A stretch of 64,000 bases of DNA from an uncultured bacterium (GTDB lineage Bacteria; UBA8481). Below the pieces are notes generated by a model. The model did not search any database and was not told the origin of the DNA. It saw only the letters and a list, made by a program, of their open reading frames with translations. The stretch covers positions 1 through 64,000 of the forward strand of contig CAZCME010000004.1 in NCBI GenBank assembly GCA_964499705.1, read 5' to 3'. The position numbers and the translations under genes were made by a program. Below, in pieces: positions 21,203 through 51,841 of this stretch (position 1 is its first letter; the number at the start of each line of letters is the position of its first letter).

Positions 21203-21206
<4 letters not shown>

Positions 21207-21670
21207 GCGCGAACTCCGGTCGCAGCCTGCAGCATGGACGTGGTGGACCGGCCGGGAAGAAGGTCGACGCGATGGACCTGTCCTCCCCAGGACAGAACCT
21301 CCGGCTCGCCGACAATCCTGCCCGCGCCGTAGTCCGCGCCTTTGACAAGCACATCCGGTCGGACGACCATGATCAATTCCAACGGCGTGTCTTCATCGAA
21401 CACGTCGACACGATCCACATACTTGATGGCTTCCAGCACGGATAATCTGTCCAGCACGGAATTCACGGGTCGTCCCGGACCCTTCAGCCGTGCGACGGAA
21501 GCATCGGAGTTCAAGCCGACAAGCAGGTAATCTCCCATGCGCCGGGCACGACGCAGAAGCTCGATATGCCCCGCGTGAAGAATGTCGAAACATCCGTTCG
21601 TGAAGACGATCTTCCTGCCGGAGCCGCGGATTTTGCCGCACTCATCGGCCAGGAGAATCCTGTCAGTCAT
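21203..21670 (-). CDS. rfaE2: ADP-heptose synthase, adenylyltransferase domain (RfaE2/HldC)
   Basis: VFTNGCFDILHAGH, GLNSDASV.RLKG..RP, LVKGADY, STT. Confidence 0.93.
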
Positions 21671-22676: not shown

Positions 22677-22686
22677 AACTTTCCGC

Positions 22687-23352: not shown

Positions 23353-24347
23353 CTAATAATTCGGACCAAACTTGTAGTTCAAGGATACCCGATGGTTGTT
23401 ACCGAGGCTACCGTAGGGAATGAAGGCGTAATCGAGCGCGAGATCGTTGACTTTGACCCCGATTCCGCCGGTCAGCCCTTCATCCGCGTCGATCCGTCCG
23501 TCCCAACCGATGCGCAAAGCGATCATATCCATGACTCTTGCTTCGGCACCCAACTGCAACGTCAGATCCTGATCCCTTACTTTTTCCACGTCTCCCGTGA
23601 ACGTAAGGCGATCGCCCAGGAGATCGACGGCCGCGCCGATGCGGAACAACGCCGGAAGCTGCTCGGACACCGAGTTTGCGGTGGCTCCGGGCACATCGAA
23701 GTTCACGTTCGTCCCGATATTGGCTCCGGTCAATGCCAGCCTGATCGGCAATGTCGAGGGGCGCATGACCATGCCGAGGTCGACCATGAACGAAGTGGCC
23801 GCGATATTGGCAAGCTCCTGGTGCAGAAGCTTGGCGGTTACTCCAAAGCTCATGAATTCATTGTACTGCCGGCCATAGGCCCCCTTGAGGATCCAGTCCG
23901 CTCCGCTGAAGGAACCGGAAGGCGTGGCATTGTTGATGAGATCCGAAAGCGTCACTCGCGGAATCTTGCCGTAGTCCAGGTAGGTCATTCCCACGCCCCA
24001 GCCCGAAATATCCGTGAAGGGCTTGGAATATCCGATCTCGCCATGGCTTATCCCCTGAACAAGGCTCTGGTATGTGGCCTGCACTTCGCTCCGATGGGTA
24101 TAGGCGAGGCCGGCGGGATTGTAATGCATCGCCGCCACGCCCAGCGCGGTCGCCGTTCCAGCGTCACCCATCNNNNNNNNNNGCCGTACGCCATAGCTTG
24201 TATTTCCACGAGATCATGGGCCGCTCCCGAGCCAATGCGAAGTACCGCGCCAGTGGTCGATCCCGCTCCGTTCGTGTTGGACCGGGCGGTCACTCCCGCG
24301 GCCAGGAGCAAGGTTGCGACGCCCGACAGCGCGATCGTCTTCATCAT
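23353..24347 (-). CDS. PorV/PorQ-like outer-membrane beta-barrel, copy 1; interrupted by an assembly gap at 24173-24182
   Basis: Signal peptide, GA.LRIGSGAA...MGDAG......AMHYNPAGL, C-terminal DYAFIPYGSLGNNHRVSLNYKF; paralog of 37847-38779. Confidence 0.8.
24173..24182. other. Scaffold gap (10 N)
   Basis: Run of N in the sequence. Confidence 1.
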
Positions 24348-24437
24348 CCTAATCTCCATCGGACTTCAGCGGCTTCGATTGAAGCTGATATTTCCGCGGG
24401 GCGGCCGGGTGAATCCGGAACCTGATTCGGGGTATCT

Positions 24438-27400
24438 TCATCGGATGATCGCCAGCTTGCCGGTGACCCGCTGGCCCGTCGCATCGTCGGTGACGACATA
24501 GAGATACACTCCGCTGGCCACCGGGCGCCCGTTCGAGCTTATGGCGCCCCAGTTGACCGTCGCGTTCGCGTTGTTCTTCTTGATCTCGATGATCTTCTCG
24601 CCGAAGAGCGTATAGATTTCGATGCGCGTCTGAGGCGTCAGGTTCTTGAACAGGATGCCTGATGTCGCATCGCCGGGCGACCACATCCTGCCGTTCTCAT
24701 CGTTGGCGTCATTGGGAATGTAGGGATTGGGGCCGACAAGGAGCCTGGTCAGCCCCTGGTCCGAAATACCCGTGTCATTCGATATGAAAAAGGGCGAGAA
24801 ATGCCTGATCGTTCCCGTCAGCGTCCTGCGGGTCCTGTTCCAGACGATGTTATCGAGAAGTTCCAGCTGTCCGGCCGCGTTCAGCGTATATATTCTAGCC
24901 TTGGACATATCGATACCTGTTGAATCGTCATAACCATTCTGGTTGGCATCGATGTAATTGATCGTGATCGTGGAAAGCGCGCCCTGGAGGAAATTACCGC
25001 CGGCTCCCGTGAGCGCCAGATGAGCCCAGTACCGGGGGATGGCGCAGCCGGCCGAGCGGATCGCGGCCAGCATCTCCTCGGTGTACGTATCGCGAGTGGC
25101 GCGGGAAGTGACGCGCGCCGTGTCGGTCGGGATCGATCCCTGCGCCAGGTTGAGCACGGCGTCGAAGATTCCGCTGGCCGAGCGGATCACGACGACATCC
25201 GCGGCCGAGCGAGTGGAGACCTGTTGCTCCTGGTAGACGGAATCCTCGGCGGCCCGCTCGTCGCCGGCCAGCACGAGATACGTCAGCGTCCCGGTGTCGC
25301 CGACGAATCCGGGCTGCTGCAGCGTGATGCCGACGGATGTGGCGTATGTGTCTTCACCCTGGCTCGTGACGGCGACCGCGACAATTTCGTAGGAGTCGGC
25401 TTTCAGCGTGCTTGTTTCCCAGAGAAAACTGTAGAACACATTTCCACTGGCATCGAAAGAGGAATCCTGAGCGACACCGATCGTCGAATAGCCAAAGCCG
25501 GACAATGCCTGCGGACGCAGCTTGAACTTGACCTGTATGATGTCGGAAGCCGTGCCCAGGACGAGTTGCGCGACCAGGGGAATGCGGTTCACGACGAGGT
25601 TCGTATCATAATGGATCCGCTCTCCCGCCTGAGGCGTCACAAACCGGACGCTCGCCGCGGGCGACGCGGAGGTCAGTCCGCGGAACACGGCCGTGATGAT
25701 CGCCGAAGCGGTGCTCTTATTGCCCGCGAGATCCTGGGAGACGATGAGAAACCGATACTGGGAATCCGCGTTCATGGAGGTCGTCGAATCGGGAAGCGTG
25801 AGGGAATAGAAGAGCTGGCCCGAGACGTGCGCGAATGTCTTCAGAAGCGCATTCGGATAGAGCCCCAGGCCGGAATCCCAGAAGAGATTATACTGACCTC
25901 CCGTCATGCCCGTGTCCCCCGACGGCGAGGGATTGAACGTGATGACGAGCAGGCCGGGATTGGTCGTCACCGTAAAATTGTCCGGCGGCAGCGGGGGTAT
26001 CCGGTCCGGCACGATGACTATGTACGTGTCATAGTAAACATCCGCGGGCGGACCGGATTCGGTGTACCAGCCGTCCGCGCCCAGCGCCGGAAAGACCACA
26101 CGGACCGTCGGAAGCCCCGTATCGACAAGGCGCACGACGATGAGATATTCCGAAGTGTCCGGAGAAAGCGGCCCCGGTCCCTGGTTGAAGGATTGAAGCT
26201 GCGTATCGGTCGGCATCGCGGTCCCCGCGGAATCCGGAAGATATCGGACCAGCCTCCATCCGTCCGCGAATAAGCCCATGCTGTCGTTCCTGAAATAACC
26301 GACCAGCGCATCACGGACGATATTTCCGGATGTATCGAACGCCTCCGAGTCGAATCTCCTGTTCCTGTTGGCATCCCGATAAAGAGTAACCGTGTCGAAA
26401 CTGAACATGCGCGACGTATCGGAGCCGAGAATGCGGATGAGAAGCGAATGCAGCGTATCGGCTTCCACATCGCTTCTGGGAATAAACCACGCGATCTCCT
26501 TCGTGTCCCCTCTCTGAATCGTGGCTGTCAGGGATGGATTTCGAGGCTCCGTGTGGATAAACATGGAATCGCGACGGTACGTGAAAGTGCAGCTCGATGT
26601 GGCGGCGGCGCCGGGACCGGTGTCCCGATACAACGTTTTCAAGCCGTGAGCGGGGATCCAGGCAAAAAGCGTCGCAGCCTGCGGCACGGTCTCCGCGATC
26701 CGAATCGTCACGAAAAATGTTTCGCCGGCCGGATCTTCCGCGGTGAATCCGTAACTCTGGTTGGCGATGCCCCAGGTTTCCTGCCCTCCCGCGGCCAGTT
26801 GCTTCGCGAGCGGAATGATGCTCTCGCCGGGCGAGAGCGTGAGCGTAACGGTATCGATGTGGCCGATGACCGCACCCGTGAACACGATCGTGAAAATCTG
26901 CAGCGTATCTCCCAGCGTTGTCACGACGGGAATACCCGCGCTGTCGCCTCCGATGAGCCCGGACATGATCACCGTCGGATTGGAATCCTGTGAGCGCGAC
27001 CGGAGCCAGTTCGGATTATTGCGGAGCGCGAAGATCGGATGGACCCACGACTTGCTGCTCAGGGTATCCATGAATGACGCGGACTTCGGCGCGCCGAACG
27101 TGATGTTCCGGGACGCCGTCACGGGGAGATCGGGCCGGTTCGTGAGAAACGTGTGCACGGAATCCGGATCGATCCGGACACGGATTCCGGCGCCCAGCTG
27201 TACCGTGTCGAAGACCTCCGCGACCAGCGTGCAGCTGATCACTGACCCGAAGATGATCGGTGAATCCATCCGTGTCGTTGTCCATCCGGAAGCTTCCTGG
27301 CGCACCAGGATGAACGTATCCCATCCTCCGCCGGCTCGATCGACGAGCACCCAGGCCGCGCGCACACTGTCTCCGCCGCTGGCTCCGTCGCCCGTGAATC

Positions 27401-30400
27401 GAAAAGCGAGGCGCTGCAGGGAATCCGTGGCTGCGGTCGCCGATGTCTGGCCTCGGACGGTCCCGACAAGAGCGATGAAAGGATTCTGCTGAAGCCGTGA
27501 ATCCGGATGAACGGTGATATTGGCGAGGGCGCTGTCCGAGACCAGGACGGTATCGACATGATTGTAACGGATCACGCGGCTGCAGGAGATATTTCCGACG
27601 GAACCGGTCAGGAATGCCGAAGACACCGTTTCGATGAGCGCCGTGAACGATTGACCGATGAAGCGGAGCGGACTGTCGGCTGTCGCGACGCGCACGGTGA
27701 AGCTCTGGCCGGAGTCGATCGTCACGCTTGCGGGAAGACTGAAAACGGGCGATGACGTCGAGGGAGTGACGAGCGTCAGCGTGATCTCCCGAGCCGGCGT
27801 GATGGATCCGGCATCGAGGAAGAGCCGCGTCGAGAGTTGCTCGCCTGTCAGGCCCGGGCTGCAGAACAGCTTTGCGCGGAAAACAACAAGCGAATCGCTC
27901 GGCACGAAGGTCGATGAAAACTTGCCCTGCAGGGCGACCGTCGAGTCGTTCTGCACGCGGAAGGGAGATACCGTGGTATCCGGCAGCGTCGCGGGCGCGA
28001 TCGCGAAGAACGGTTTTCCGAACGTGATCGCGCGCGAGGCCGTCACCGAGCTGTCGGGACGGTTGGTCAGCGCCGTATGAAACGAATCCGCGTCGATCAC
28101 CGCGCGCAGAGTCGTCCCCAGCGCCACGTTCTCCGCGATCTGAACGACCAGGGTGCATCTGAGGCCGGACGATGACGGAATCGTCTCCGAGACGTTGGCG
28201 AACCAGCGGCCGATGCCGTTGGGAAAAAGCGATATGCTGTCGGAAGCCGCAAGGCCGGCGGTTTCGATCTGCACCCAGGCCGCCACGATGCTGTCGCCCG
28301 AATCGGTGATCGCCGATCCTGTGAAACGAAATCCGATCCGCTGGAGCGTATCGCGAAGGGCCGATGCGGAAGTCTGTCCGCGAACCGTTCCTATGAAGGC
28401 GATGAAGGGATTCATGCGCGCGCGCGAATCCGGATGAATGGTGGTATCAGCCAGCGCGCTGTCCGTGACCGCAACGGTGTCGACGTGGTTGAAGCGTATC
28501 ACGCGGCTGCAGGAAATGTTGCCGAGCTGACCGCTCAGGAACGCGGTCGAAGCCGAATCGATGATTGCCGTGATCGATTGGCCGATATAAATGAGCGGAC
28601 TGTCCGTTGTGGCGACGCGGACCGTGAAACTCTGGCCGCTGTCCACGGTCGCGCTCGCCTGGATGCTGTAGATGGGATTGGAGGTGCCCGGTGTCAGGAG
28701 AATCATCGTCGTCTCGCTGGCGGGCGTGAAGGATCCCGCGTCGAGAAACAGGCGCACGGTAAGGGATTCGCCCCGTATCCCCGCGCTGCCGACAAGTTTC
28801 ACCTGGAAGTTCGCCAGCGAATCACTCGGCTCGAACGTCGCCGCGAACTTCCCTTGCAGCGCGATCGTCGAGTCGTTCTGTTCCCGGAACGGAGAAACCG
28901 TCGTGTCGGACAGCGTCGCCGCCGCGATCGTGAAGGAAGTCTTCCCGAACGTGACCAGCCGGGAGGCTGTCACGGAACTGTCCGGCCGATTCGCAAGGGT
29001 CGTGTGAAAAGAATCCGCGTCAATCACGGCGCGCATGGTCGTTCCCAGCGCCACATTTTCCGCGATCTGGACATGGAGCGTGCAGCGGACAGCCGAGGTG
29101 GAGGGAATCGTTTCGGTGAGATTCGCGAACCAGCGGCCGATCCCGTTGGGGAAGAGCGATATGCTGTCGGATGACGCCAGGCCCGCGGACTCGACCTGCA
29201 CCCAGGCCGCGACAATGCTGTCTCCGGCGCTCGTGATCGCCGATCCCGTGAATCGAAAACCGATGCGCTGAAGCGTGTCCGGAATCGCCGACGCGGATGC
29301 CTGGCCGCGCACCGTCCCGATAAAGGCAATGTAGGGATTCATCCGCGCTCGCGAATCCGGATGGATCGTCGTATCGGTGAGCGCGCTGTCCGTGACCGTA
29401 ACCGTGTCGATGAAGTTATACCGAATTACCCGGCTGCACGAAATGTTCCCGGCCTGGCCTGTCAGGAGGCTCGAGGAGGCTGTCTCGATAAGCGCCGTAA
29501 AAGACTGTCCGATGTAGCGAAGCGGACTGTCCGTCGTCGCCACACGCACGGAGAAATTCTGGCCGGTATCGATCGTGACGGCCGCCCCCAGGGCGAACAC
29601 CGGCGACGTCGCGATCGATGTGTCCGCGAGCGCCAGAATGACTTCACCCGCCGGAATGAGGGCCGCGGAATCGAGGAAAAGCCTGACCGTCAGGGATTCG
29701 CCGCGGATTCCGGCGCTTCCCACGAGCTTGACGCGGAGGACCGCGAGCGAGTCGCTGGGAGCATACGTCGAAGTGAATTTGCCCTGCAGAGCCGTCGTCG
29801 AATCGTTCTGGATCCGAAATGGAGTCACGGTCGTGTCCGCCAGGCTCGACGATGCGATCGAGAACGACGGCTTTCCAAACGTGACGGTGCGCGACGCCGT
29901 GACGGAACTGTCGGGCCGGTTCGTGAAGAAGGTATGGAACGAATCCGCGTCGATGACAGCCCGCAGCGTCGAGCCGAGCGTGACATTTTCCGCGATCTGC
30001 ACGACCAGCGTGCAGGGAACGGCCGCTGACGGGAGAAGCGTCTTTGTCACGTTGGACATCCAGCGGCCGACGCCATCGGGAAAGAGCGAAATGCTGTCGG
30101 AGATTCCCAGGCCGGACGTCTCGATCTGAACCCAGGCAGCGACGATGCTGTCCCCCGAAGGCGCGATCGTCGTGCCGGTGAACCGGAATCCGATCCGCTG
30201 CAGCGTGTCCGAGAGCGCCGAGGCGGACGTCTGGCCGCGAATCGTACCGGTGAATGCGATGAACGGATTCATCCGTGCACGCGAATCCGGGTGTATCGTC
30301 GTATCGGCCAGGGGCTGGTCCGTGATGACAACGGTATCGAGATAATTGATCCTGATGATCCTGCTGCAGCTGAGATTCCCGGCGGCACCCTGCGCGAAAA

Positions 30401-35753: not shown

Positions 35754-35838
35754 TATTTTCTCCGACGTAGAAGCAGTGTTCAAGGCTGCCCGTATTATAG
35801 AGCCATCACATCGGAGAAATCACCCGAAAAATGGGATT

Positions 35839-37818: not shown

Positions 37819-37846
37819 CGGCTACTTCAGAAAGCGGAGAAGAAGG

Positions 37847-38779: not shown

Positions 38780-38805
38780 GTTCCTACTCTCCAAGCCTCT
38801 GTGTC

Positions 38806-41800: not shown

Positions 41801-44800
41801 GCATTCGTATCGACACCGAGGCCGAATGTTCCATGCCGCGGCACGCTGATCGTGTCCTGGCCGCTCACGAAAGCGCCTGTCGAATCGGTGATGGAGAGAA
41901 CCATGTTCATGGCTTCGATCGAGTCGCCGAGCGATGTGCCGGAGGTTCCGGTGATCCGGAAGCCGATCCGGTTGATCCTGTCGACAAGTCCGACGGTCGA
42001 TGTCTGGCCGCGGAATCGTCCCTGGTAAAGGACGAACGGATTCTGGCCAAGACGCGAATCCGGATGAATCGTGGACGATCGCGTGTCGTCGTTGGTGATG
42101 AGAACGGTGTCGAGATACGCCCACCGGACGATCTTGGAGCAAGTCTGGTTGTTGGAGGAGCCAGTGGTGAAGAGCGATGTCGCGGACTCAATCTTGAGGG
42201 AAGCGAAGACTCCCATCATCGTCGTGGAGCTGTCGGCGCGGAGCATGACTCCGGTGTCGTAAGCCGTGACCCAGATGCTGAACCTGTGGCCGGAGTCGAT
42301 CGGCATCATGGCCTGGATTCTCCATGACTCCGTTCCCGCCACGCGGAGGAGCTGCGTTTCATAGGACGGGTAGAAGGTTCCCGAATCTCTACGCAGCGTG
42401 AGGATGATCGAGTCGTGCGCTGCATATGTGCCGAACCCAAGCTTCGAGTCAAGGCCGACCTGGAAGAAGCTGATGGTATCCTGCGGAACGTTCGCGACGG
42501 AGAATGAACCCTGCATGATGATTGTGGAGTCGTTCTGAGCGCGGAAGAGCTGAACGATCGAGTCGTTCAGGAAGTTCGCAGTGATGCCGAACGCCGGCTT
42601 TCCAATAGTGACGAGCCGCGATGCAACCGTGGCCGTCTCCTTACGGTTGGTGAGAACCGTCAGAGTCGAATCCCTTGGAATGGTCATGCGGAGCGTCGTG
42701 TTGAGAGCCGTCGTGTCGTAAATGTTGACGAAGACCGTGCAGGTCATGATCCCGTTGAAGTTGATGCGGGTATCGAAGAATCCGAGCCAGAAGTTCGAAT
42801 CCGTGCCCCACTGCCTTGTGTCATGGCCGTTAGCGGCCAGAGTCGGATCGGTCGCGCGATAGAGCGAGATCGAATCCAAACGCTGCTGTGTCGTGTCGTA
42901 CATGATCCAGACAGCCTTGACGGCGCCGTTTCCGAAGGAATCGGTCGCGAGCTGGCCCGCCCAGTCGAACTTGATGGTGACATGACGGAAGGTGTCGGAA
43001 ACTCCGAGTGCGGACGTCTGTCCCTGGACCTTGAAGACCATGGCTACGAACGGATTGAGGAGCGTCCTGGAATCCGGATGGACGTTCGTGTCCGTCAGAG
43101 CGCTGTCAGTGATGATGATCGTGTCCACGTAGTTGTAGCGGATCGACCGGCCCGAAGTGAGATTCGTTGCCGTGCCGGAGATGAACGCCACGTACGCCGA
43201 ATCGATGTAGCCGTTCAGCGATTTGCCAATCATACCGAGCGGCGTGTCATTGGCCGTCGGAATGTCGTCGACGACCACGCGAACCGCGAACCTCTGCGCT
43301 GAGTCGACGCGAATCTGGAACGGCAGAACGTAGGTGCACTGGAACGCCTGTGTCGAGATACGGGTGAGCTGGATATTCGTGTCGAGGACACCGCCGATCG
43401 TATTGAGCCAGACCGCGATCGATTCACCGCGGAAGCTGGTGTTGACCGTGTCTCTCACAATGACCGTGAATCCGAGCAGAGAATCCCCGTAAGCATCGGC
43501 GTTTGTGACCGCGAACTTGCCGGACATGATGATGGTCGACTCCGTCTGCACCGCGAACGGCGAGACGGTCGTATCGGTCAACACATCCATGTCGATGGCG
43601 AAGGTCGGCTTGTTGAGTGTTACGAGACGACCAGAGGACGTCGAAGTGAGCTTGCCGGCCGTGAAGACCGTGCGAGCGCCTGTCTCAACGCTTGTCCCCG
43701 TATCGCCCGCACGACCATAGCGCGATAGGACAACCTCGGAACGGAGCGACTTGTTGAGAGCCACTGTCTCCAGGACGTGAACCGTGATCGTGCAGCTGAT
43801 CGAGTTGCTCGCGGCGGACATGACCGTATCGAGGGTCAAACGCCATGTGGCGGAGTCGCGACGAACAAGAGCCCTGGTTTCCGTCAGGGTGCTGACATTC
43901 GCCCAGACTGCGACGATCGTGTCATTGACGCCGAAGACGAGGCCCGGTGTTGCCGAGCCGGTGAACATGAAGTCCGCGTGGCGGAACGTATCCCTGACAA
44001 GATTTCCTGATATATCCCTGTTCGTGGTCTGACCCTGGAAGGTCACAACCTGCGCAACGAACGGCGCCATACGCTGCCTGGAGTCAGGATGAATCGTCGT
44101 ATCTCCCAAGGCGCTGTCCGTGACCGTGATCGTGTCGATGTAAGCGAGGCGGATCGTCCGGCTGCAAGTGAGGTTACCCGCTGAGCCTTGAGCGAACTGG
44201 AGCGTGATCGAATCCGTCGGAATCGTCATCGTGAGATTCTCGCCGATGTAGTTGATCGGCGTGTCGTTCAAAACAACGCGGATCGTGAATGCTTGACCGG
44301 ATTCGATCTGCAGCTTCGTATCCGCGGGATTGGCGATGTGGCGCCAACCGTAGGTCGGCGAGGTCGAGTTCGCATTGACGAGCGTCAGCGTCGTCTCCGT
44401 GAATCCGACAAGCACGCCGGACTCAAGAACCATCTTGACCGAATAGGACTCGCCGCGCGTCGTGACAAGACCGTTCAGCTGAACGCCGAACGCCACGATC
44501 GTATCCGTCGGCGCGTAGGTCACCCTGAAGTTACCGGCCATCGCCACCGTGGAGTCATTCAGCAGCCGGAACGGCGGTACAGTCGTATCGCCCAAAACCG
44601 TCATCTGAACAGAAATTGCGGGCTTCTGGTAGGTGATGGTCCGGACGCCGAGAACCGTATGCGGCAGGCCGCCGGCAAGCGGGCGGGAGTCGCGCATGAA
44701 GAGCGTCTGGATCGAGTCGGAGAAGATCTCCGCGCGCAGTCGGGCGCCATTCGGAACCGTGTCCGGAACGTGGATCGTAACAATGAAGGTATCGCTGTTA

Positions 44801-47800
44801 TTCGACCCAAGAAGCGGCGAGTCAACGGACGCCGACCAGTGCCAGATGTTGTCACCGAGCGGAACGGCAGGAGACGCCGCGCCGCGGGTCAGAACGATCG
44901 GTCGTCCTGAATCGGAGAGATAGACAATGACGGAGTCGACGGCGTTGGCCACCGTGTCACCGGCGGTCGCGCTGAATATCCGGATGCCGAAGTAGATGAG
45001 CGAATCTCCGGCAATGTTGCGCCACTGCTGACCGGCGCTATCCGTGAAGATCGTCTTAGCGTTCTGGCCGTTAATGCGCCCCGCGAAAATTACGGGCGGC
45101 GTATCGGCAAGTCGAGAATCCGGATTCACATTGGTATCCGTATAAACGAGGCTCTGCGCGATCTGCGTCGTATCGGCAAATGTGAACGAGATACCAGCGC
45201 GAGTTGTCTCCGCGCCGGTCGCGCCCTTCCACGAACCCGTATCGCCAGCAAGACCGGAGGTAAATGTCGTGTTGACCGAATCCGCCGGAATGATGACGTG
45301 CACCGTGTCGCTCAGCCCGAGCCCGCGTGAATCGGCGAGTTGGCGGAGATAACGGGCCCGGAGGAATCCGGCGTTGTTCGTCGTATTCCGGAACGTGACG
45401 AAGATCTGGAAGGCCTGCGACTCGGAAATCGTCGTGTCCTGAACGCCCGTGCGGAGGCGGTAGCTGCGCGGAGAGATAGCGAGCGAGTCGAGGTAGATCG
45501 TGTCGCCGCTCGGCCGAGCCGAAGACGGCATCAGCTTCATCGTGACGACCGCGATCGAGTCCGCCGTCATGCCGGCGGGCAGCGAGTCGAACTCAATGCC
45601 GAAGTGCGTGAGCGTGTCGTAAGCCGGCATCGGAACAGGACCGACGTTCGTAAAGATAACACCGGAGCAGACTCGGATTCCGAGTCCTCCTCGACCGTCG
45701 TTGATGATCGCGAAGTTTCTGCTGTCAGGATCGGTCGAGATCGGATTGAAGAGAATCTCCCACGGAACATATTGCGTGTCCGGCAGCGTCCACATGCCGA
45801 GCGTGACCGGATCGGCGTTGATGAGGAAGATGCCGGAGGACTCGCCGATGAGCGGGCCGGGCGAGCTGAAGACGCCCGTGCAGCCGCGACCGACGACCCA
45901 GCAAGCGAGCGTCGTTCCGGTCGGCGTCGTGTCCATCAGCCTGATCCGAATCGCAAACGTGTCGCCCGAGCGAACCGTCGAGTCAAGCCCGGTGAGGAGC
46001 CACGTATCGGCTTTGATTGGAGCTACCGCCGCCAGACGCGTCATTGCCATCCACGGACCGAAGACTCCATTGCGCTTGAACTGCACTTCCGAAGAAGTGA
46101 CGGAGTCGCTGACCTGGTTGCCGCCCGAGGTGAATCGAATCATCAGCTCGCGGAACGTATCCTGGTCGATCTCGATCAATTGGCTGTCGATCGTGATGAG
46201 AGCGTCGAAAATCTTGGCTGGAATGATCTGGGACTGGATCGGGTTGATGGTGTCCGGAGCGAGCGTCGATGAAAGCTGGGCCGGTGTGCAACCAAGCGGC
46301 GGACGGAGCGTCGTCATGACGCGTCCGGAAGTCGTCTCGGAGCTCGGACCGCTGTCTCGGAAGAACGTGAGAATCGAATCCTGCGCCACGAAGAACTGCA
46401 CGGTCGCGGCATTTTGCAGGAGCGATGCGCTGTCGTTGAAGCTGATGTAGGCGCGGAAGTTGATGGTATCCTGCGTCTGTTTCAGAGTGGTGCCGTTGAA
46501 TGTCGCGCGGAAGAAATTGCCGTTCGCGGTCATGGCAGCCGTCTCGATCCCATCGATGACAAGTGCCACCGACTCCACATCCACCGCGCTGATGCCGCCT
46601 GTGTAGACGACACGGAAACCGAACTGACTCAATGTGTCTCGGTTGATTCCCGAGATCGTATCATCGTGAATATAACCCGCGACAACAAGATAGGAATCCC
46701 GGGTTAATGACCACGGATTCGCTCCAAAGAGGACGCGCGAATCCGGATGCCCGATATTCGCAGGAAGCGTCGTGCAGCTGACGATGACCTGCGACCGAAC
46801 GATCGAATCGATCGCCGAAGCGACCTCGTTGGCATTGCCCGCGACGCGACGGCGAGTCGTGATCGAATCGGCCTGTATGACCGCTTGTATCGTCTCATTG
46901 CGCGGCGCCGTATTGAGCAGCCGAACGTAGACGCGGTAAGTCTCGTAGGATCCGAGAGCAAAGAGTGAATCCACGTTGGTGATATACAGGCTGTCTCCGC
47001 CCTTGAAAGGACGAATGCCGGTATTGCCGATTTGAATCAAGGAGTTCGTCTCATCGACGAACGTCGCATTGATGCCCGGGCTGAATTTCAGCCGGACGGC
47101 GAAACTCGTCAGCGAGTCGGACGAAAGCGCGCCCACCTGTCCCAATACTCCGTTGGAAATGAGAGTATCGGCGTTTATGGTTCCGGCCAGGATCAGAATG
47201 GAATCGCTGACGCGAGAATCCGCGTGGACAAAACGGCGTTCGAGCGGCGAATCGGTGATAGCGATACGCGGCTGCACAACCGTTACGATGCGCGCAACTG
47301 TGAAGACAGAGGATGGACCGCTCTCGCGGAAGGCAGATGCGAAGGAATCGAGTTGAACCTGCGCCTGAATCGAACCGTTAGCCGTGTCAAACGTCCTCGC
47401 ATACAGACGTACCGTTGTCGTCCCCGTAATGGTCTGATTCACAAGATAGAGATACGTATCACCAAGAATAGTGCCCGGGGGATAGGACGTTCCATTAAGG
47501 ACAAGCGTTACCGTATCCACGTATCGTGAATCCATGCGCGGTCCAGCGAAGACCAAGCGCACGTTGACGCGCGCGATCGTGTCGTAGGGCAGCGCGGGGG
47601 TCAGGAGCGTATCGGCGTTGATGAAGAATTCCGCCAGTTGGACGGAATCTCCCTGAACGCGCGAATCCGCATGAACTGTAATGGCGGGCAGAACGGAATC
47701 CGTGAGCGCAATGCGTGGCTTGACAATCGTAACAACGCGGCTGAGAAGCATGTCCTGAGCCGGGCCCGTGTCACGGAATGCCGCCGCAATGGAATCTACG

Positions 47801-50800
47801 AGGATCTGGCCCTGGATCGTGCCGTTGACCGGCGCGAGATTGAAGGTGCGGACATAGACGCGCACCGTGGTCGTATTCGAAACAGTCTGGTTCGGGAGAA
47901 TACCGAAGGTATCACCCGTACGGCTGGACGTGACATACGGCGTGTTATCCACGACGAAGATAACGGTATCGATGTGCGTTGCCGAGACAAGACCGCCGCC
48001 GAGAATGAGGCGCGTCTGGAGACGGGTGATCGTATCGTATGGCAAAGGCGTCGTTAGCAGTGTGTCGGCAGCTACAAAGAATGACGCAAGGAAAATCGAA
48101 TCGTTCTGGATGCGCGTGTCGGGATGAATTCCGATGCTCGGCATCGCGGAATCCACCACAATGACACGCGGCTTCCGATATGTAACCGTGCGACTTGCCA
48201 AGAGCGACGAGTCCGGACCCGCGACGCGATAACGGGTGGTCACGGAATCCTGCAGGATTTGAGCTCTCAATGTGGCCAGATTGGGAACGGAACTCTCCGT
48301 GCGGATATAAATTCGGAAGCTTTCATATGTGCTCTGGCTAAACGCGGAATCTAGGCCCGGCGCTTCAATATAGTACGTGTCGCCGGCGCCACGCTTGGGC
48401 GTCCAGATTGTATTGCCGATCACGATCTGCGAGACCGTTTCTTTGACGTGCGCCGTGGTCATTCCGCCGGTGAAGATGAGCCGGAACGTAAAACCAGTCA
48501 GCGAGTCGGAAGGCAACGACGGCGTCAGGAGCGTATCCCTGTTGATCGTTCCGGCCATGACAAGAACCGAGTCGGTGACGCGCGTATCCGGATGAACAGT
48601 GACGTTGCCTAGCGTGGAGTCGGCAATTTCGACCCGCGGCTTGTTAATCGTGACCGTACGACTTCCCAATAAGGAAGAATCCGGACCGGCAACGCGGAAC
48701 CTTGAGGAGACGGAATCCTGGAGAATCTGCGCGCGGATCGTGCCGTTGACGGGCGTCGAGCTCTCCGTGCGAATGTAGACACGATAGCTTTCATACGTGT
48801 TGAAACTGAATCCCGAGTCAAGACCCGGCGCCTCAATGTAGTACGTATCTCCGGCGCCACGCTTCGGTGTCCAGATCGTATTTCCTATGACGATTTGAGA
48901 GGTTGTTTCGCTGATATTCGCCGTCGAGACGCCGCCCGTAAAGATGAGGCGGAACGTAAAGCCGGTCAGTGAATCGTTGGCAAGAATCGGCGTCAAAAGT
49001 GTATCTGCGTTGATTGTTCCCGCCAATATGAGGAATGAATCCGTGACCCGAGTGTCGGGATGAACCGCAATGTTCGAGAGCGCCGAGTCGGCGACCGTGA
49101 GCTTCGGCTTGTTGATGGTAACCGTTCGGCTGCCCAAGAGCGACGAATCCGGTCCTGCGACGCGATAACGCGTGGTGATCGAATCCTGAAGTATCTGAGC
49201 GCGAATCGTTCCATTGACGGGTGTGGAACTTTCCGTGCGAATGTAGATCCGGTAGCTTTCGTACGTATTCAGGCTGAACGCGGAATCAAGTCCCGGCGCC
49301 TCGATATAGTACGTATCGCCGGCGCCACGCTTGGGAGTCCAGACCGTATTGCCGATCACGATCTGCGACGTTGTTTCGCTGATATGCTGCGTTCCGACGC
49401 CGCCCGTGAAAACGAGACGGAAGGTGAACGCCGTCAGAGAATCCCTTGGAAGGATCGGCGTCAACAGCGTATCCGCGTTAATGGTTCCCGCCATGATGAG
49501 GAAGGAATCCGTAACGCGTGTATCCGGGTGCACCGCGATATTCGTCAATATGGAATCCGCCACGGTGACACGCGGACGGTTGATCGTCACGGTGCGGCTA
49601 CCCAAAAGCGATGAGTCCGGCCCCGCGACGCGATATCGGGTTGTCACGGAATCCTGAAGTATCTGAGCCCGGATTGTGCCGTTGATCGGAGTGGAGCTCT
49701 CCGTGCGAATGTAAATGCGGAAGCTTTCATAAGTGTTCAGGCTGAAGGATGAATCCAAGCCCGGCGCCTCGATGTAATATGTGTCGCCTGCGCCGCGCTT
49801 CGGCGTCCATACCGTATTACCGATGACAATCTGAGAAGTCGTTTCGCTGATATGCGCCGTCGTGACACCGCCCGTGAAGACGAGACGGAACGTGAATCCT
49901 CTCAACGAATCGGATGCAATGGAAGGCGTGAAAAGCGTGTCCGTATTAATGGTTCCGGCCATAAGAAGGAACGAATCCGTTATCCGCGTATCGGAATGAA
50001 CGGCAATGCTCGATAACGTGGAATCCGCAATAGTGACTCGCGGCTTATTGATGGTGATGAGCCTGCTGCCGACAACAGAGTCGGACGGGCCGGATGACCG
50101 GTATCGGAACGTTACGGAATCGATCGGCACAATGGCCCGAACCGTGCCGTTGATGGGCGCCGTCTCACGGATCGTGATTCGGATCGTATACGACTCCGCG
50201 ACGCCAAAGGACTGATTGATGACCGCGGTCAGATATGAGTCGCCTGAGGAAGCTGCAAGCGCGCCCGAGCTGTCGGCGGTAAATTCGGTCGCGCCGAGGA
50301 GCACTCCCACGGACTCGACGTCCAGATAGGACATACCGCCTCCGAATTGGAGGCGCAGGCCGAAGCGCTGGACGGAGTCGCCACCGAGCCGAACCTGCAA
50401 CAATGTGTCCGGTTGAATCGTTCCCACAGCAAGGATATACGGTGTCCCGGCGGCGCGCGAATCCGGATGCGCAATGATGTTCGGCAACGAGCTGTCATGC
50501 AGTGCGGCGCGGGGACGCGAGAATGTCACGACACCGGAGGAATCCTTGACCGTGGCATTGCCGCGGCGGAACTTGGATCCGACGGAGTCCACCGGTATCG
50601 TGCAGCCCACAAACCCCTGCAACGGGGGCGTGTCGGCCGTGACAACAACGCGGAACGTATCCACGCCGCCAGCGAGCGCGAGGATGACGGTCGAAATGTT
50701 GGGGGCATTCCAAGACGTCGTGCCGGCGGTTCTCGCCAGATCCACACGAACATCAGGAGTTACGGCCGAACCGACGATGAGCCAGGCGCTATCGATGTTG

Positions 50801-51630
50801 GCGCCGGCCGAACCGCCCATGTCCACTCCGAACTTCGCCAAGCTATCGCCACCCACCGTGCGAGTCTCTCCCTGGAGCGTTCCATGGAGAAGCGTGAACG
50901 GTGACTGTCCAGCGGCGCCGGAATCCTGGAACGCGAACTTGTTGCCGATAAACGGCGTCCCCGTCGAGTCGCTGTAGACGCGGAAGATGAAGGTATCGAG
51001 ATCTCTCTGGCCAGGATTGGGCTTCTGCGTGACGGTCGGACCGGCGGTATCCATCACAATCGTGACGCCGCGGTTCGGTATGCGAACAAATATGGTCGTG
51101 TCGTTCAAGCGCAGATTATTTTTCGTGTATACGACAATGACATACGATTCCGTGCCGGTGAAAAGAATTCTGCCGGCAGCCGGCTCGGTGACGATCAGAC
51201 TATAGTCGACCGTGGAGCCGGTATCGGCGACGGGCAATGTCTGCCTTGCGATCCGAGTGACGTCACCAGCATCGAACTGTTGGTTGTTGTTCGCGTCCAC
51301 ATAGAGGTCAACGGTATCGATAATGCTGGCGAAAGGAACAGAGTTAGGCGATTTGACGAATTGAATCTTAAAATCCGTAACCGTGTCGGGCACGCCGGCG
51401 GAACCGGAGCATCCGATCGCGCCCGCCGTGTTGAGGTAGAACTTCAGAATACCTCCGGGAACCAGGCCGGTGTCGGCGAAGGCGGCCGGAGGAGTTTTCA
51501 GAAGATTTGAATAGCTATCGCCGCGGATGACATCGCGGAATGCGGCCTGCGCATGCGCAGCCTGAGGCATCAGAGAAATAATTGCCGAAAGTATAAGTCC
51601 GTACGAAAAAACCTTGGCCGACATCTTCAT
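38806..51630 (-). CDS. Giant secreted repeat protein 2 (~4,270 aa), paralog of giant 1, with a T9SS-type C-terminal sorting domain
   Basis: Signal peptide ending AAHA-Q; same domain order as giant 1; C-terminal GPNPFMP...IYTILGEKI...WGV.NDNGKPVTSGYYLYVV...KVAVIR; SD GGGGTG before ATG 51630. Confidence 0.85.
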   Translation of the reverse strand: MKMSAKVFSYGLILSAIISLMPQAAHAQAAFRDVIRGDSYSNLLKTPPAAFADTGLVPGGILKFYLNTAGAIGCSGSAGVPDTVTDFKIQFVKSPNSVPFASIIDTVDLYVDANNNQQFDAGDVTRIARQTLPVADTGSTVDYSLIVTEPAAGRILFTGTESYVIVVYTKNNLRLNDTTIFVRIPNRGVTIVMDTAGPTVTQKPNPGQRDLDTFIFRVYSDSTGTPFIGNKFAFQDSGAAGQSPFTLLHGTLQGETRTVGGDSLAKFGVDMGGSAGANIDSAWLIVGSAVTPDVRVDLARTAGTTSWNAPNISTVILALAGGVDTFRVVVTADTPPLQGFVGCTIPVDSVGSKFRRGNATVKDSSGVVTFSRPRAALHDSSLPNIIAHPDSRAAGTPYILAVGTIQPDTLLQVRLGGDSVQRFGLRLQFGGGMSYLDVESVGVLLGATEFTADSSGALAASSGDSYLTAVINQSFGVAESYTIRITIRETAPINGTVRAIVPIDSVTFRYRSSGPSDSVVGSRLITINKPRVTIADSTLSSIAVHSDTRITDSFLLMAGTINTDTLFTPSIASDSLRGFTFRLVFTGGVTTAHISETTSQIVIGNTVWTPKRGAGDTYYIEAPGLDSSFSLNTYESFRIYIRTESSTPINGTIRAQILQDSVTTRYRVAGPDSSLLGSRTVTINRPRVTVADSILTNIAVHPDTRVTDSFLIMAGTINADTLLTPILPRDSLTAFTFRLVFTGGVGTQHISETTSQIVIGNTVWTPKRGAGDTYYIEAPGLDSAFSLNTYESYRIYIRTESSTPVNGTIRAQILQDSITTRYRVAGPDSSLLGSRTVTINKPKLTVADSALSNIAVHPDTRVTDSFLILAGTINADTLLTPILANDSLTGFTFRLIFTGGVSTANISETTSQIVIGNTIWTPKRGAGDTYYIEAPGLDSGFSFNTYESYRVYIRTESSTPVNGTIRAQILQDSVSSRFRVAGPDSSLLGSRTVTINKPRVEIADSTLGNVTVHPDTRVTDSVLVMAGTINRDTLLTPSLPSDSLTGFTFRLIFTGGMTTAHVKETVSQIVIGNTIWTPKRGAGDTYYIEAPGLDSAFSQSTYESFRIYIRTESSVPNLATLRAQILQDSVTTRYRVAGPDSSLLASRTVTYRKPRVIVVDSAMPSIGIHPDTRIQNDSIFLASFFVAADTLLTTPLPYDTITRLQTRLILGGGLVSATHIDTVIFVVDNTPYVTSSRTGDTFGILPNQTVSNTTTVRVYVRTFNLAPVNGTIQGQILVDSIAAAFRDTGPAQDMLLSRVVTIVKPRIALTDSVLPAITVHADSRVQGDSVQLAEFFINADTLLTPALPYDTIARVNVRLVFAGPRMDSRYVDTVTLVLNGTSYPPGTILGDTYLYLVNQTITGTTTVRLYARTFDTANGSIQAQVQLDSFASAFRESGPSSVFTVARIVTVVQPRIAITDSPLERRFVHADSRVSDSILILAGTINADTLISNGVLGQVGALSSDSLTSFAVRLKFSPGINATFVDETNSLIQIGNTGIRPFKGGDSLYITNVDSLFALGSYETYRVYVRLLNTAPRNETIQAVIQADSITTRRRVAGNANEVASAIDSIVRSQVIVSCTTLPANIGHPDSRVLFGANPWSLTRDSYLVVAGYIHDDTISGINRDTLSQFGFRVVYTGGISAVDVESVALVIDGIETAAMTANGNFFRATFNGTTLKQTQDTINFRAYISFNDSASLLQNAATVQFFVAQDSILTFFRDSGPSSETTSGRVMTTLRPPLGCTPAQLSSTLAPDTINPIQSQIIPAKIFDALITIDSQLIEIDQDTFRELMIRFTSGGNQVSDSVTSSEVQFKRNGVFGPWMAMTRLAAVAPIKADTWLLTGLDSTVRSGDTFAIRIRLMDTTPTGTTLACWVVGRGCTGVFSSPGPLIGESSGIFLINADPVTLGMWTLPDTQYVPWEILFNPISTDPDSRNFAIINDGRGGLGIRVCSGVIFTNVGPVPMPAYDTLTHFGIEFDSLPAGMTADSIAVVTMKLMPSSARPSGDTIYLDSLAISPRSYRLRTGVQDTTISESQAFQIFVTFRNTTNNAGFLRARYLRQLADSRGLGLSDTVHVIIPADSVNTTFTSGLAGDTGSWKGATGAETTRAGISFTFADTTQIAQSLVYTDTNVNPDSRLADTPPVIFAGRINGQNAKTIFTDSAGQQWRNIAGDSLIYFGIRIFSATAGDTVANAVDSVIVYLSDSGRPIVLTRGAASPAVPLGDNIWHWSASVDSPLLGSNNSDTFIVTIHVPDTVPNGARLRAEIFSDSIQTLFMRDSRPLAGGLPHTVLGVRTITYQKPAISVQMTVLGDTTVPPFRLLNDSTVAMAGNFRVTYAPTDTIVAFGVQLNGLVTTRGESYSVKMVLESGVLVGFTETTLTLVNANSTSPTYGWRHIANPADTKLQIESGQAFTIRVVLNDTPINYIGENLTMTIPTDSITLQFAQGSAGNLTCSRTIRLAYIDTITVTDSALGDTTIHPDSRQRMAPFVAQVVTFQGQTTNRDISGNLVRDTFRHADFMFTGSATPGLVFGVNDTIVAVWANVSTLTETRALVRRDSATWRLTLDTVMSAASNSISCTITVHVLETVALNKSLRSEVVLSRYGRAGDTGTSVETGARTVFTAGKLTSTSSGRLVTLNKPTFAIDMDVLTDTTVSPFAVQTESTIIMSGKFAVTNADAYGDSLLGFTVIVRDTVNTSFRGESIAVWLNTIGGVLDTNIQLTRISTQAFQCTYVLPFQIRVDSAQRFAVRVVVDDIPTANDTPLGMIGKSLNGYIDSAYVAFISGTATNLTSGRSIRYNYVDTIIITDSALTDTNVHPDSRTLLNPFVAMVFKVQGQTSALGVSDTFRHVTIKFDWAGQLATDSFGNGAVKAVWIMYDTTQQRLDSISLYRATDPTLAANGHDTRQWGTDSNFWLGFFDTRINFNGIMTCTVFVNIYDTTALNTTLRMTIPRDSTLTVLTNRKETATVASRLVTIGKPAFGITANFLNDSIVQLFRAQNDSTIIMQGSFSVANVPQDTISFFQVGLDSKLGFGTYAAHDSIILTLRRDSGTFYPSYETQLLRVAGTESWRIQAMMPIDSGHRFSIWVTAYDTGVMLRADSSTTMMGVFASLKIESATSLFTTGSSNNQTCSKIVRWAYLDTVLITNDDTRSSTIHPDSRLGQNPFVLYQGRFRGQTSTVGLVDRINRIGFRITGTSGTSLGDSIEAMNMVLSITDSTGAFVSGQDTISVPRHGTFGLGVDTNAWFFNRIDSPLPYLGWMHCTVYVRIAESVALNTTMTLQMMPDSINTYYSQDTPLGGVFSATGRTITFGTPRSEVVIDTRASQAWVHPVLAIRQHPNWLRSRGQESNPIVVLSGKIDGDSSALPTIQVTGDTLRVFKVTFVRPATADSSIIACTMTMPNNLVGAPLRTIVLTRLGTEATYETWGHLNIDTVFSAIDGDAASDTFFVTIQVAETIAQASTIEPQIWASSIKTKFRDTGTALNQTVGSVFTFRRDSFFIHTEPPHPSVTRLVERGETKAVMWFVPKADLETAVIVGMTIRLRGTAGLAGSIDTVQLYKDFNRSRIWESRFVNPADSSQFATDTLVGFFTSVSATSDLWTLTRNPLNAASTEASERARGFSTDTLSTETPFFPTVDTQEYIICVTVKVSDTQCTTVTASIVAMGCTGPYMESGPVTAQAGQEVSYESFAVGANDTIAPLTPVDFTITVNAGSLSITWSPSPSGDTGMTNGKYVLFWDSGLGLYPQQILKTVNHVSGQLAYTISLPDSTAQLFSDSAYRFSLQAFDSAGNASPAAPVITAVFRSTLSVPPVASAQMISPNAGDAIWFNFASPTARNRINFVAKLTDKTTATQVTGIEFGIRKLVEPGFVYHPFSTTADSSYDDAGDVYYSAILETDVANFLSAQARAGTVVDSFEVRAVAITAVGRDTYASSISFSVVGFQDVDSDPLTTDTSLSQYFTVYGESTYNPGDSTTPSDTAFIEQQVTTRATGDILQLRTPTGAFDIVLKLNFGSLRSDTARIVGSLQRGGMGETLQTQIRAMGCEIPKYFANFSIQQNTNDTSLGAGATITINYIDANNDEVDDSSFVDMAKARIYTVGGDGKLERLQNLVRDPDLNTVSGTVKHFSPFFVTNDTGIVTNGLNSLLVGPNPFMPNDGNDQTGRAWVPGDATTGIIFKNLPVRVRIEIYTILGEKITEINKNDNNGAVNWGVINDNGKPVTSGYYLYVVTDVATGQRVTGKVAVIR
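48170..50043 (-). repeat. Four highly similar tandem 468-bp (156-aa) repeats within giant protein 2
   Basis: The (K/R)P anchor falls at 50041, 49573, 49105, 48637 and 48169, an exact 468-bp period; each unit contains WTPKRGAGDTYYIEAPGLDS. Confidence 0.92.
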
Positions 51631-51807
51631 GAACTGATCACCCCGCTTTGCGGTTGGATTTTTCTTCTCGAGAGAAGAATGAGAGACCGAAGCGGGAGCA
51701 CGCATTATCGCACCGACGCTCGGTAATAGTATCGCCCGTAACAAATGCGCGCACGAAGGCACGCATCATCACAGACCATTAATTGAAACGAAGTTTCCCT
51801 CATAGTC

Positions 51808-51841
51808 GTGAACAATAATCATTATCAAGTCGGGGTGTCAA
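51808..51841 (-). promoter_or_regulatory. Promoter of giant 2 (TTGACA-N18-TATTGT) overlapped by a Fur-box-like site
   Basis: Plus strand 51808-51826 GTGAACAATAATCATTATC matches GATAATGATAATCATTATC at 15/19 positions (hand count). Confidence 0.6.

Follow-up and report, generated by a model that had tools for sequence, protein, structure and literature searches.

The secretion system known as type IX (T9SS) is restricted to the FCB group according to PMC11205867, and a 2025 paper infers that it arose within the gliding machinery of Bacteroidota (PMC12635249). Its translocon combines SprA/Sov with PorV (PDB 6H3I, 8GL6-8GLN), the canonical system further has a GldL/GldM motor, a GldK/GldN ring and the sortase PorU, which removes the tail and attaches cargo to LPS, and the motor is described as driving substrate release in Flavobacterium (PMC10994853). 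In that genus, all type A cargo are reported to use one PorV (PMC12618676). For the type B system, PMC12618676 and PMC9143113 describe orphan cargo that shares carriers and a carrier that anchors the adhesin. There, the cargo adjoins its PorP/SprF barrel (PF11751), as in SprB-SprF and Fjoh_3952-3951 of Flavobacterium johnsoniae and in PG1035-PorP. In the attachment complex of Porphyromonas gingivalis, two machinery proteins with type A-like tails pair with PorV/PorQ-family barrels (PorZ-PorQ and PorU-PorV), and both tails are reported to be uncleaved and to remain on their barrels (PMC10202324).

The block described here lies in a window of 64,000 nucleotides (the whole stretch of DNA analysed) from a Lindowbacteria-like host outside the FCB group. 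Like the P. gingivalis pairs, it joins type A-like tails to PorV/PorQ-family barrels; in contrast to them, the genome holds 21 cargo-barrel cassettes, the cargo is giant, and no PorU body is found in the matches. By analogy, the block appears to work like the type B cargo-carrier pairs, with PorV/PorQ-family barrels instead of PorP/SprF, PF11751 being found in 0/5 genomes (no control was detected either). The ORF list confirmed five minus-strand ORFs in the order giant, PorV-like, GT-C, giant, PorV-like, as claimed in the first-pass annotation (Table 1). The block end given there as 51841 needs correction, as the giant A ORF ends at 51762. The first ATG of barrel A overlaps the giant A stop codon. 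The contigs listed span all gene junctions of the block, although the best ones may come from the source sample; no RNA data set containing it was listed. No core T9SS family was seen in a Pfam scan of 42 of the 207 listed window ORFs, in line with the earlier statement that the window holds no core T9SS genes.

Table 1. Features of the block and its immediate context (positions in the window).
Feature	Position	Strand	Description
Giant A	38806..51762	-	4318-aa ORF, likely start ATG 51630
Giant A repeat array	41062..51486	-	21 units of ~155 aa, weak 22nd after; purpose-built HMM
Giant A pre-tail region	39124..41061	-	several beta-sandwich domains, one FN3-like
Giant A sorting tail	38809..39123	-	type A-like; closest solved relative PorZ
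Barrel A	37847..38809	-	PorV/PorQ family, 320 aa
GT-C	35839..37818	-	ArnT/PMT_2 type, 659 aa; at duplication junction
Giant B	24438..35783	-	3781-aa ORF, likely start ATG 35753
Giant B repeat array	26583..35663	-	19 repeats; purpose-built HMM
Giant B tail	24441..24755	-	TIGR04183 match
Barrel B	23353..24347	-	PorV/PorQ family, ~318 aa with assembly artefact 24173-24215 set aside
gmhA, heptose kinase, heptose adenylyltransferase, kdsB	20403..23265	-	LPS-core sugar genes; context of block

The apparent 5′ break in barrel B coincides with a 10-N gap in the assembly. In three of the four sequencing runs examined, drawn from two studies, only five letters separate 24172 from 24216, and the joined gene reads in frame to the ATG at 24347, by arithmetic on the run-supported junction. 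Barrel B is therefore encoded by an intact gene, and its apparent break stems from the assembly.

Both giants were said to end in near-identical CTD-like domains. The tails are in fact 70% identical (73/105 residues), and the CTD-like assignment is clear for giant B, whose last 120 aa reach 26.7 bits with TIGR04183 (cut-off 23), while giant A stays under the cut-off (18.3). Searched against the PDB, the tail profile matches PorZ best (E 2e-8), then PorU, the best entries being 5M11 and 6ZA2. A Lys is conserved near the tail end. Among the NCBIfam models, type A gives the tail a better score than type B does; its best Pfam match, sub-threshold, is the type B family CHU_C.

The PorV-like reading of the barrels held, since both pass the PorV/PorQ family model NF033709 (172.7 bits for barrel A and 156.5 for barrel B, cut-off 90). 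Neither reaches the cut-off of the strict PorV model or that of the strict PorQ model. Barrel A also matches PF19572 (28.9 bits) and the PorV structure 6H3I (E 6e-7), and the two barrels are 67% identical. In the whole genome, NF033709 gives 25 matches (22 above the cut-off), 21 of which follow a same-strand tailed ORF at a distance of less than 500 nt; conversely, 21 of the 34 tailed ORFs have a barrel. The window block thus represents 2 of 21 giant or tailed-ORF plus barrel cassettes, and the relatives have 14-21 barrel matches each.

Tail and barrel distances are correlated over 20 pairs of this genome (rho 0.59, reached by 1 of 5000 permutations), and the nearest neighbour is the same for tail and barrel in 16/20 pairs. 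Such congruent trees are also expected from linkage, as co-duplicated linked genes need no coevolution. A complex model, run on cognate pair A and bearing on binding rather than on A versus B specificity, gave an ipSAE of 0.93 for tail A with barrel A, against 0.00 for the best of three controls. It has 162-164 contacts, at least 96% of which are shared between runs, with a partner pLDDT of at least 90; the pass mark is reached by 116/157 solved pairs and 2/215 mismatched pairs. This pass may reflect likeness to solved PorV-CTD complexes. The proposal that each giant has a cognate barrel is borne out for both as a tail with an adjoining barrel, and for pair A also by modelled binding. We consider it very likely, on this model, that the tail binds the neighbouring barrel.

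The same data bear on the possibility that the barrels have nothing to do with the giants and are FadL/TodX channels for lipids or hydrocarbons. Toluene_X is matched weakly (E 0.008, well short of its cut-off) and TodX at E 1e-6, but the PorV match is far stronger (E 3e-30 over 215 positions, versus 74 positions for TodX), and neither the position of 21/25 barrels after tailed genes nor the tail-barrel complex model fits such channels. PF03349 reached 15.1 bits against a cut-off of 29.7, for barrel B only. The first-pass annotation had named C-termini failing CTD models, or FadL-type barrels, as findings that would speak against it; the tail profile instead finds PorZ/PorU and the barrels NF033709. 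The channel reading is largely refuted and we give it hardly any weight.

A survey of the genome for sprA and gldKLMN, suggested in the first-pass annotation, had a split outcome. A SprA-like gene is present in 5/5 genomes (this one and four relatives), single and divergent in this genome. Its 2150-aa product ends in an aromatic residue, matches TIGR04189 with E 2e-28 (97.8 bits, below the cut-off of 200), and has distant homologues named SprA with PF14349; its sequence gave no direct match in PDB or Pfam. It is likely a SprA homologue, judging from these alignments. In contrast to the canonical system, no matches were obtained for GldM (0/1 genome), GldN (0/1 and 0/61) or GldL (0/5) in searches that had no T9SS-positive control genome and could miss diverged copies, and GldK gave weak partial matches in 3/5 genomes (34-50 bits against a cut-off of 350). 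The host is flagellated. A spare FliG as alternative motor was discarded, as the genome has one FliG_C match, with three MotA/ExbB matches, and no sign of a spare rotor.

The PorU protease body was searched in the host's own genome (96% complete, run without a positive control); all 17 matches fall in the last part of the model (positions 937 and up). This argues against a canonical type A pathway, in which the barrels would serve as reusable shuttles and the cargo, once its tail is cut off, would be set free or attached to LPS. The type A score of tail B (TIGR04183 26.7) and the cassette preceding gmhA in 4/5 genomes would fit that pathway, but the matches at the tail end lack the protease body, and one gene would suffice for a recycling shuttle where 22 are found here; we regard it as quite improbable. 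Uncleaved tails held by the neighbouring barrels are preferred.

Inspection by eye gives both giants a signal peptide; the other parts are some 20 Ig-like repeats (~155 aa each), a pre-tail region and the C-terminal tail. A two-unit AlphaFold2 model of the giant A repeat (pLDDT 91.7) and fold searches indicate an all-beta Ig-like sandwich. The best fold matches are 6mnj (Z 9.3, rmsd 3.0, 127 aligned) and 8gn6 (Z 9.0), with 3-13% identity and Foldseek TM of 0.40 or less. Beta-sandwich repeats are shared with fibrillar adhesins and stalks (antigen I/II, MSCRAMM and pilin domains, cohesins), and the fold with the N-terminal sandwich of Bacteroidota sialidases; the low identity to known Ig-repeat adhesins, and the lack of any Pfam family above cut-off or usable Atlas match, set the giants apart and mark this as an unnamed repeat by sequence comparison. 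The pre-tail region of giant A matches PF00041 below cut-off (E 9e-4), and its low-confidence model (pLDDT 67) gives FN3/Ig arrays in Foldseek at low TM; no enzyme family or fold was found there with this whole-region model and Pfam.

The number of repeats, counted with the repeat HMM, differs between giant orthologues. Such variability is easier to reconcile with a rod than with a lattice and weighs against an S-layer like that of the Tannerella TfsA/TfsB pair, which is reportedly T9SS-secreted and O-glycosylated. The tandem pair, the single orthologue per relative, the very high motif density described below and the absence of an enzyme domain from the Pfam matches recall that pair, but a single barrel for each 400-kDa chain means anchoring at a point, and the giants show average codon usage (850th and 1252nd of 1728, in a genome with weak codon bias), so that codon bias did not support an S-layer either. 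We think an S-layer very unlikely; a rod is favoured.

The giants are rich in Asp followed by Ser or Thr, which concerns 215/281 Asp in giant A and 189/247 in giant B (76-77%). This is a 3.6-fold excess over composition (second and third place among 1438 ORFs) and the highest among the 34 tailed ORFs, with flat reversed-dipeptide and Asn controls and Asn-Ser/Thr depleted; for comparison, the E. coli proteins YeeJ and Ag43 have 0.66 and 1.08. All giant orthologue pieces show it (2.7-3.9-fold). Tailed ORFs of other architectures have a 2.47-fold excess, and 75 other tailed proteins are bimodal (40 at 2 or above, 31 under 1.4). When homologous regions are matched, the copy from this genome has the higher value in 16/19 pairs, which are non-independent and of small counts. 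Loops hold 14/18 modelled motif sites, and the tails of giants A and B only 1 and 0 sites.

This pattern recalls the general O-glycosylation system by which Bacteroidota modify D(S/T)X, with which the giants share the dipeptide, a preference for Ile, Leu or Val after it, and a secondary excess of Glu-Ser/Thr (2.0-2.7), a minor O-glycosylation site in Prevotella according to PMC10897501. They differ in having ~200 sites per protein, in phylum, in being known here from sequence, and in allowing Arg and Tyr at the third position; Arg, found at 21/215 giant A sites, is excluded in the Prevotella list (PMC10897501). No paper was found on an Asp-Ser/Thr signal in this lineage.

Part of the excess may be structural, as some Asp are strongly conserved: of 107 repeats, half or more show the motif at each of three columns, and one Asp is invariant. 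If turn capping or calcium binding explained all of it, the giants would be unglycosylated at these sites. Calcium-binding Calx-beta is among the middling fold matches (Z about 7), and the repeats are homologous, so the sites are not independent. Against this reading, removal of the conserved columns still leaves a 2.8-fold excess, the region outside the repeats has 2.4-3.1-fold, Asn-Ser/Thr is depleted, 31 of the 75 other tailed proteins lack the motif, and the excess extends to other architectures and, with the limits given above, to the matched pairs. A purely structural origin is the less likely explanation, though one with real weight, and the giants are probably O-glycosylated at the Asp-Ser/Thr sites, likely by a cell-wide system rather than a dedicated local enzyme. 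We know of no transferase identified so far for the Bacteroidota-type motif. A TMEM260-like protein (PF11028) is single-copy in 5/5 genomes and, among 14 controls, occurs only in Bacteroides thetaiotaomicron; it is also present in 26/56 unrelated genomes and is therefore only a candidate.

The embedded GT-C had been proposed to modify or anchor both giants. Enzymes of this type act outside the inner membrane, and this one (PF13231 PMT_2, 27.5 bits, cut-off 26.1) starts 28 nt past the barrel A stop and ends ~55 nt ahead of the giant B ORF on the same strand, a spacing that makes co-transcription probable. The top motif excess of its two neighbours would also agree with a dedicated role, and it could add a late, lineage-specific decoration. 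However, all four relatives have one orthologous giant with its barrel directly downstream, and the GT-C is missing at the 3/3 fully visible loci (the fourth is visible on its downstream side only), where the giants are equally motif-rich (3.5-3.9-fold). The four relatives contain one full-length GT-C orthologue (44%), for which the 55.6 kb examined contain no tailed ORF, and one relative lacks any GT-C match. Of the genome's 28 PMT_2 genes, only 1 has a tailed or barrel gene within 3 kb, close to chance by our estimate (about 1). Four GT-C orthologues (43-47%) are apparently on contigs other than those of six giant orthologues, a weak comparison between differing samples. Metagenome scans for GT-C loci and a genome scan with barrel A alone gave no matches, the linkage evidence coming from the four relatives. 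As the giant-barrel-GT linkage is not conserved at the visible loci, the dedicated-modifier reading is unsupported; a local role of the GT-C in glycosylating the giants is improbable. It was rejected as a conserved component of the block and is probably incidental, apparently a late arrival between the copies. Long glycosylated surface fibrils or adhesins remain plausible from the motif excess and the repeat model, with the GT-C role not borne out.

We propose that the block arose when a cassette of giant and cognate barrel was duplicated in tandem, with an unrelated GT-C between the copies. The giants would leave via Sec on their signal peptides and be O-glycosylated in the periplasm at the ~200 sites by the Bacteroidota-like cell-wide system. 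The tail would then take them through the single divergent SprA-like pore, both assigned by homology; export by this route is likely. The barrel next door would capture the tail and hold it uncleaved, like PorZ on PorQ, as carrier and, we infer, permanent anchor. The product would be a non-enzymatic glycosylated rod of ~25 beta-sandwich domains, ~100 nm if extended (estimated from typical Ig domain lengths), serving as adhesin, spacer or coat. We hold this explanation as a whole to be somewhat more probable than not.

By title and abstract start, none among 17 of the 19 papers naming Lindowbacteria dealt with secretion, and none of the papers listed described such a system outside the FCB group; subscription papers or supplements could hold SprA/PorV surveys. 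It is conceivable, though we lean slightly against it, that a flagellated non-FCB phylum uses, in a reduced type IX-like system not described before in this lineage, one divergent SprA pore, ~20 cargo-specific PorV/PorQ-family barrels as permanent anchors and no sortase or GldKLMN, with Bacteroidota-type Asp-Ser/Thr glycosylation at ~200 sites per giant. If true, the export core and the glycosylation motif would predate the gliding machinery or be separable from it, and a pore-carrier-tail system with no recognisable motor in a Lindowbacteria-like lineage tests the idea of a gliding-machinery origin. What powers the export of 400-kDa to 1-MDa cargo would then become the question, the canonical motor not being found in the searched genomes. 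The diverged tail/barrel pairs, the A and B copies among them, offer a natural set for studying carrier-cargo choice, and the motif excess points, by sequence alone, to heavy O-glycosylation beyond Bacteroidota and supplies rich substrates for finding the transferase; a GT-C-centred system is not the interesting part of the block.

Finally, barrels A and B are sisters (support 100/99) within the orthologue clade (100/99), so the trees indicate a lineage-specific, tandem duplication of the cassette. Branches are longer for the B copy, both for the barrel (0.34 versus 0.097) and, in a quick tree, for the tail (0.36 versus 0.078), which marks giant B and barrel B as the faster-evolving duplicate in these trees. 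gmhA directly follows the cassette in 4/5 genomes, including three relatives with a single cassette; synteny around the locus is broad, the link of gmhA to the cassette is weak, and the LPS-core genes are taken as context only.

The locus is real. The five minus-strand ORFs of the first-pass annotation were borne out, in the order given there, by the ORF listing of the window, and every gene junction of the block is bridged by contigs among those listed, two junctions also in a second study. Giants A and B each end in a sorting-domain-like tail, the barrels directly after them (A and B) both pass the PorV/PorQ family model, as had been proposed, and the middle gene (GT-C) passes the PMT_2 model. 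Giant A probably starts at 51630. The tails had been called near-identical but share 70% identity, with the pre-tail and N-terminal regions of the giants at 44% and 50%, respectively. Barrel B is seemingly truncated at a 10-N gap in the assembly; three of four sequencing runs place five letters between 24172 and 24216, and by our own arithmetic this join restores a single frame from the ATG at 24347. In the window (see table) and at the orthologous loci, the giant's stop codon shares bases with an ATG that lies in the reading frame of the barrel, a layout suggestive of coupled translation. Copy B differs: the frame opened by its overlapping ATG closes at a stop, with the barrel starting some 90 nt further on.

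That each giant has a cognate barrel is supported by genome-wide pairing, tail-barrel distances and a complex model of pair A. The genome surveyed (4.67 Mb, 96% complete) encodes 34 ORFs with this tail, the longest of 11,547 codons stop to stop, and 25 PorV-family matches, 22 of them above cut-off. Twenty-one of the 25 matches lie less than 500 nt downstream of a same-strand tailed ORF, and 21/34 tailed ORFs have such a barrel. For 20 of these 21 pairs (one sub-threshold barrel excluded), tail and barrel distances are correlated (rho 0.59) and the nearest neighbour is common to both in 16/20, an agreement that linkage alone could produce. The co-folding model of tail A with barrel A passes (ipSAE 0.93 vs 0.00 for the best control), with contacts agreeing to at least 96% and a pLDDT of 90 or more for each partner; the pass mark is reached by 116/157 solved and 2/215 mismatched pairs, and a pass may reflect likeness because related complexes have already been solved. 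The best solved relatives of the tail profile are PorZ and PorU, then FlgD; for the barrel profile PorV comes first, with TodX a long way behind.

The 34 tailed ORFs take up a large share of the genome. Thirteen have no adjoining barrel, among them ORFs on contigs C8, C14, C16, C27, C21 and C10; several belong to the same tail subtype as paired ones, and an orphan barrel on C1 clusters with the barrels of that subtype. Together they resemble orphan cargo using a shared carrier. The orphan barrel on C7 has a long C-terminal extension, TPR-like by eye.

Coordinates of features in this genome (G000; C numbers are its contigs) and in the window
Feature	Location	Remarks
Giant-size tailed ORFs	G000:C22:44517-79157, C1:40740-69758, C8:31177-59637, C19:60186-86192	8,669-11,547 codons
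Tail-less motif-rich ORFs	G000:C17:149-4480, C33:10430-17245, C10:41484-53425, C10:99812-117223	
Orphan barrels	C1:285932, C7:58705	
SprA-like gene with lptF/lptG-like pair	G000:C5:203983-212755	loci L078-L081 in the other cases
TMEM260-like GT-C	G000:C6:26231-28447	locus L082
Assembly artefact	window 24173-24215	43 nt including 10 N; inside barrel B; five letters there in other runs
ATG/stop overlap	window 38806-38809	
thiD-like kinase gene	window 51849-52760 (+)	
HprK-related kinase, methyltransferase and radical SAM/SPASM genes	window 60016-64000	

Of the T9SS core genes named in the first-pass annotation, a SprA-like gene is present in the genome, GldK gave weak partial matches only, and GldL and GldN, like GldM and PorP, were not found in the genomes searched; the controls held no T9SS-bearing genome, so these parts count as "not found" rather than "absent". 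The SprA-like protein (2150 aa, encoded on contig C5) reaches E 2e-28 with the SprA model, below the model's cut-off, and is present in all four relatives. Its distant homologues bear the name SprA and contain PF14349. Close ones are in records labelled Ca. Hydrogenedentota/Hydrogenedentes, uncultured bacterium or Ca. Lindowbacteria (54% identity). The PorU model was matched solely through its tail. In 5/5 cases seen, the SprA-like gene is head to head with what we take, from reading the sequences, to be an lptF/lptG-like pair. A SprA-like protein (P0003) and a giant orthologue (P0045) from JGI are each on a 263,124-nt contig, perhaps the same one.

The host phylum has five genomes in the collection searched, a size that presumably fits Lindowbacteria better than Hydrogenedentota proper. 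Lindowbacteria is the phylum closest to Spirochaetes according to one preprint (10.1101/2025.07.04.663154). FliG is present in the genome, as are flagellin-like genes. PMC11205867 assigns the T9SS to the FCB group, and no description of this arrangement outside that group turned up in our literature searches. The cassettes work like the pairs of type B cargo and PorP/SprF described in PMC12618676 and PMC9143113; unlike those, they combine type A-like tails with PorV/PorQ-family barrels, the same part types as in PorZ-PorQ (PMC10202324). In Flavobacterium, the T9SS motor drives release (PMC10994853, PMC12635249). Because no motor, ring or sortase turned up, the system here cannot be classed as a canonical T9SS.

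The giants are rods. A profile HMM made from the repeats of the giants detects 21 clear units (about 155 aa each) and a weak 22nd in giant A, and 19 in giant B. The two-unit model, confident at pLDDT 91.7 and based on 85 aligned pairs, consists almost wholly of beta structure. In structure searches it came closest to Ig-like sandwiches, led by the N-terminal domain in each of two sialidases (Z 9.3 and 9.0, rmsd about 3, 127-128 aligned) and followed at Z 6-8 by domains of adhesins, pilins and cohesins. Foldseek returned mainly adhesins (TM at most 0.40). The 646 residues preceding the tail gave a weaker model (pLDDT 67) with further beta-sandwiches, one FN3-like. No enzyme family was found in the giants.

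Ser/Thr directly follows 215/281 Asp in giant A and 189/247 in giant B, a 3.6-fold excess over expectation; the corresponding ratio is 0.8 for the reversed order, 0.4-0.7 for Asn-Ser/Thr and 2.0-2.7 for Glu-Ser/Thr. Over 1728 ORFs of the genome picked by a heuristic, the mean excess is 2.47 for tailed ORFs, 1.05 for those with a hydrophobic N-terminus and 0.87 for the remainder, with the giants second and third of the 1438 having at least 15 Asp. All orthologue pieces show the excess (2.7-3.9), whereas the tails and barrels do not, nor do the SprA-like protein and two adhesins of E. coli. Of 150 proteins listed, 75 have a terminal match and a length of 700 aa or more; among these, 40 score at least 2, 4 fall in between and 31 are below 1.4. 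In 39/40 high scorers the body is a relative of the giants described here; the motif is thus the mark of a lineage rather than of the tail or of beta-rich giants in general. Large secreted-looking tail-less ORFs also reach 2.3-3.1, and the motif is therefore not tied to tail-bearing cargo.

The Bacteroidota O-glycosylation motif is D(S/T)X, with minor Glu-Ser/Thr sites (PMC10897501). Arg is common at the third position after Asp-Ser/Thr in the giants, which counts against this reading. The pattern could also be partly structural, not all of it glycosylation sites, as some Asp columns in the repeat are structurally conserved; yet the excess persists outside conserved repeat columns (2.8), and stands at 2.4-3.1 in the non-repeat region. 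Glycosylation of the giants is likely, judging from sequence, through a general, cell-wide system; the dedicated local GT-C of the first-pass annotation is not supported. The giant of relative G004 is equally rich (3.6) and that genome has no match to the window GT-C, so the enzyme for the motif should lie elsewhere. A candidate protein O-glycosyltransferase is a TMEM260-like GT-C, single-copy in 5/5 genomes and from a family also in 26/56 unrelated ones; in humans, this family is a protein O-mannosyltransferase (PMC10214176).

We propose that a giant would be exported by Sec, O-glycosylated in the periplasm at Asp-Ser/Thr, directed by its tail through the SprA-like pore, then captured and lastingly anchored by its cognate barrel, and displayed on the cell as a glycosylated rod with a putative adhesive role.

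In each of the four relatives, a single orthologous giant precedes its barrel (the G002 giant is split over two contigs and that of G003 has a scaffold gap). In G002, G003 and G004, gmhA directly follows the barrel, and neither a GT-C nor a second giant was found at the orthologous loci, where the upstream side is visible too; in G001, the downstream side alone is visible and differs. Barrels A and B are sisters inside the orthologue clade, hence the duplication is particular to this lineage, and the DNA identity of the copies (65-73% across most aligned segments) indicates that it is not recent. Copy B evolves faster in both barrel and tail. The GT-C, ArnT/PMT_2-like, is one of 28 matches in this genome (14-23 PMT_2-type genes per genome at a stricter threshold) and alone among them has a cassette gene no more than 3 kb away. 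In G003, the full-length orthologue of this GT-C is located among other genes, and matches in G001 and G002 are partial only. Most likely, the GT-C came in with the duplication or later; co-transcription with the cassette genes is possible, and it may have a late role on these giants. A thiD-like kinase gene is divergent from giant A, likewise in G004. Finally, the genes at the end of the window, a possible peptide-modification cluster, are found together in G002, G003 and G004.
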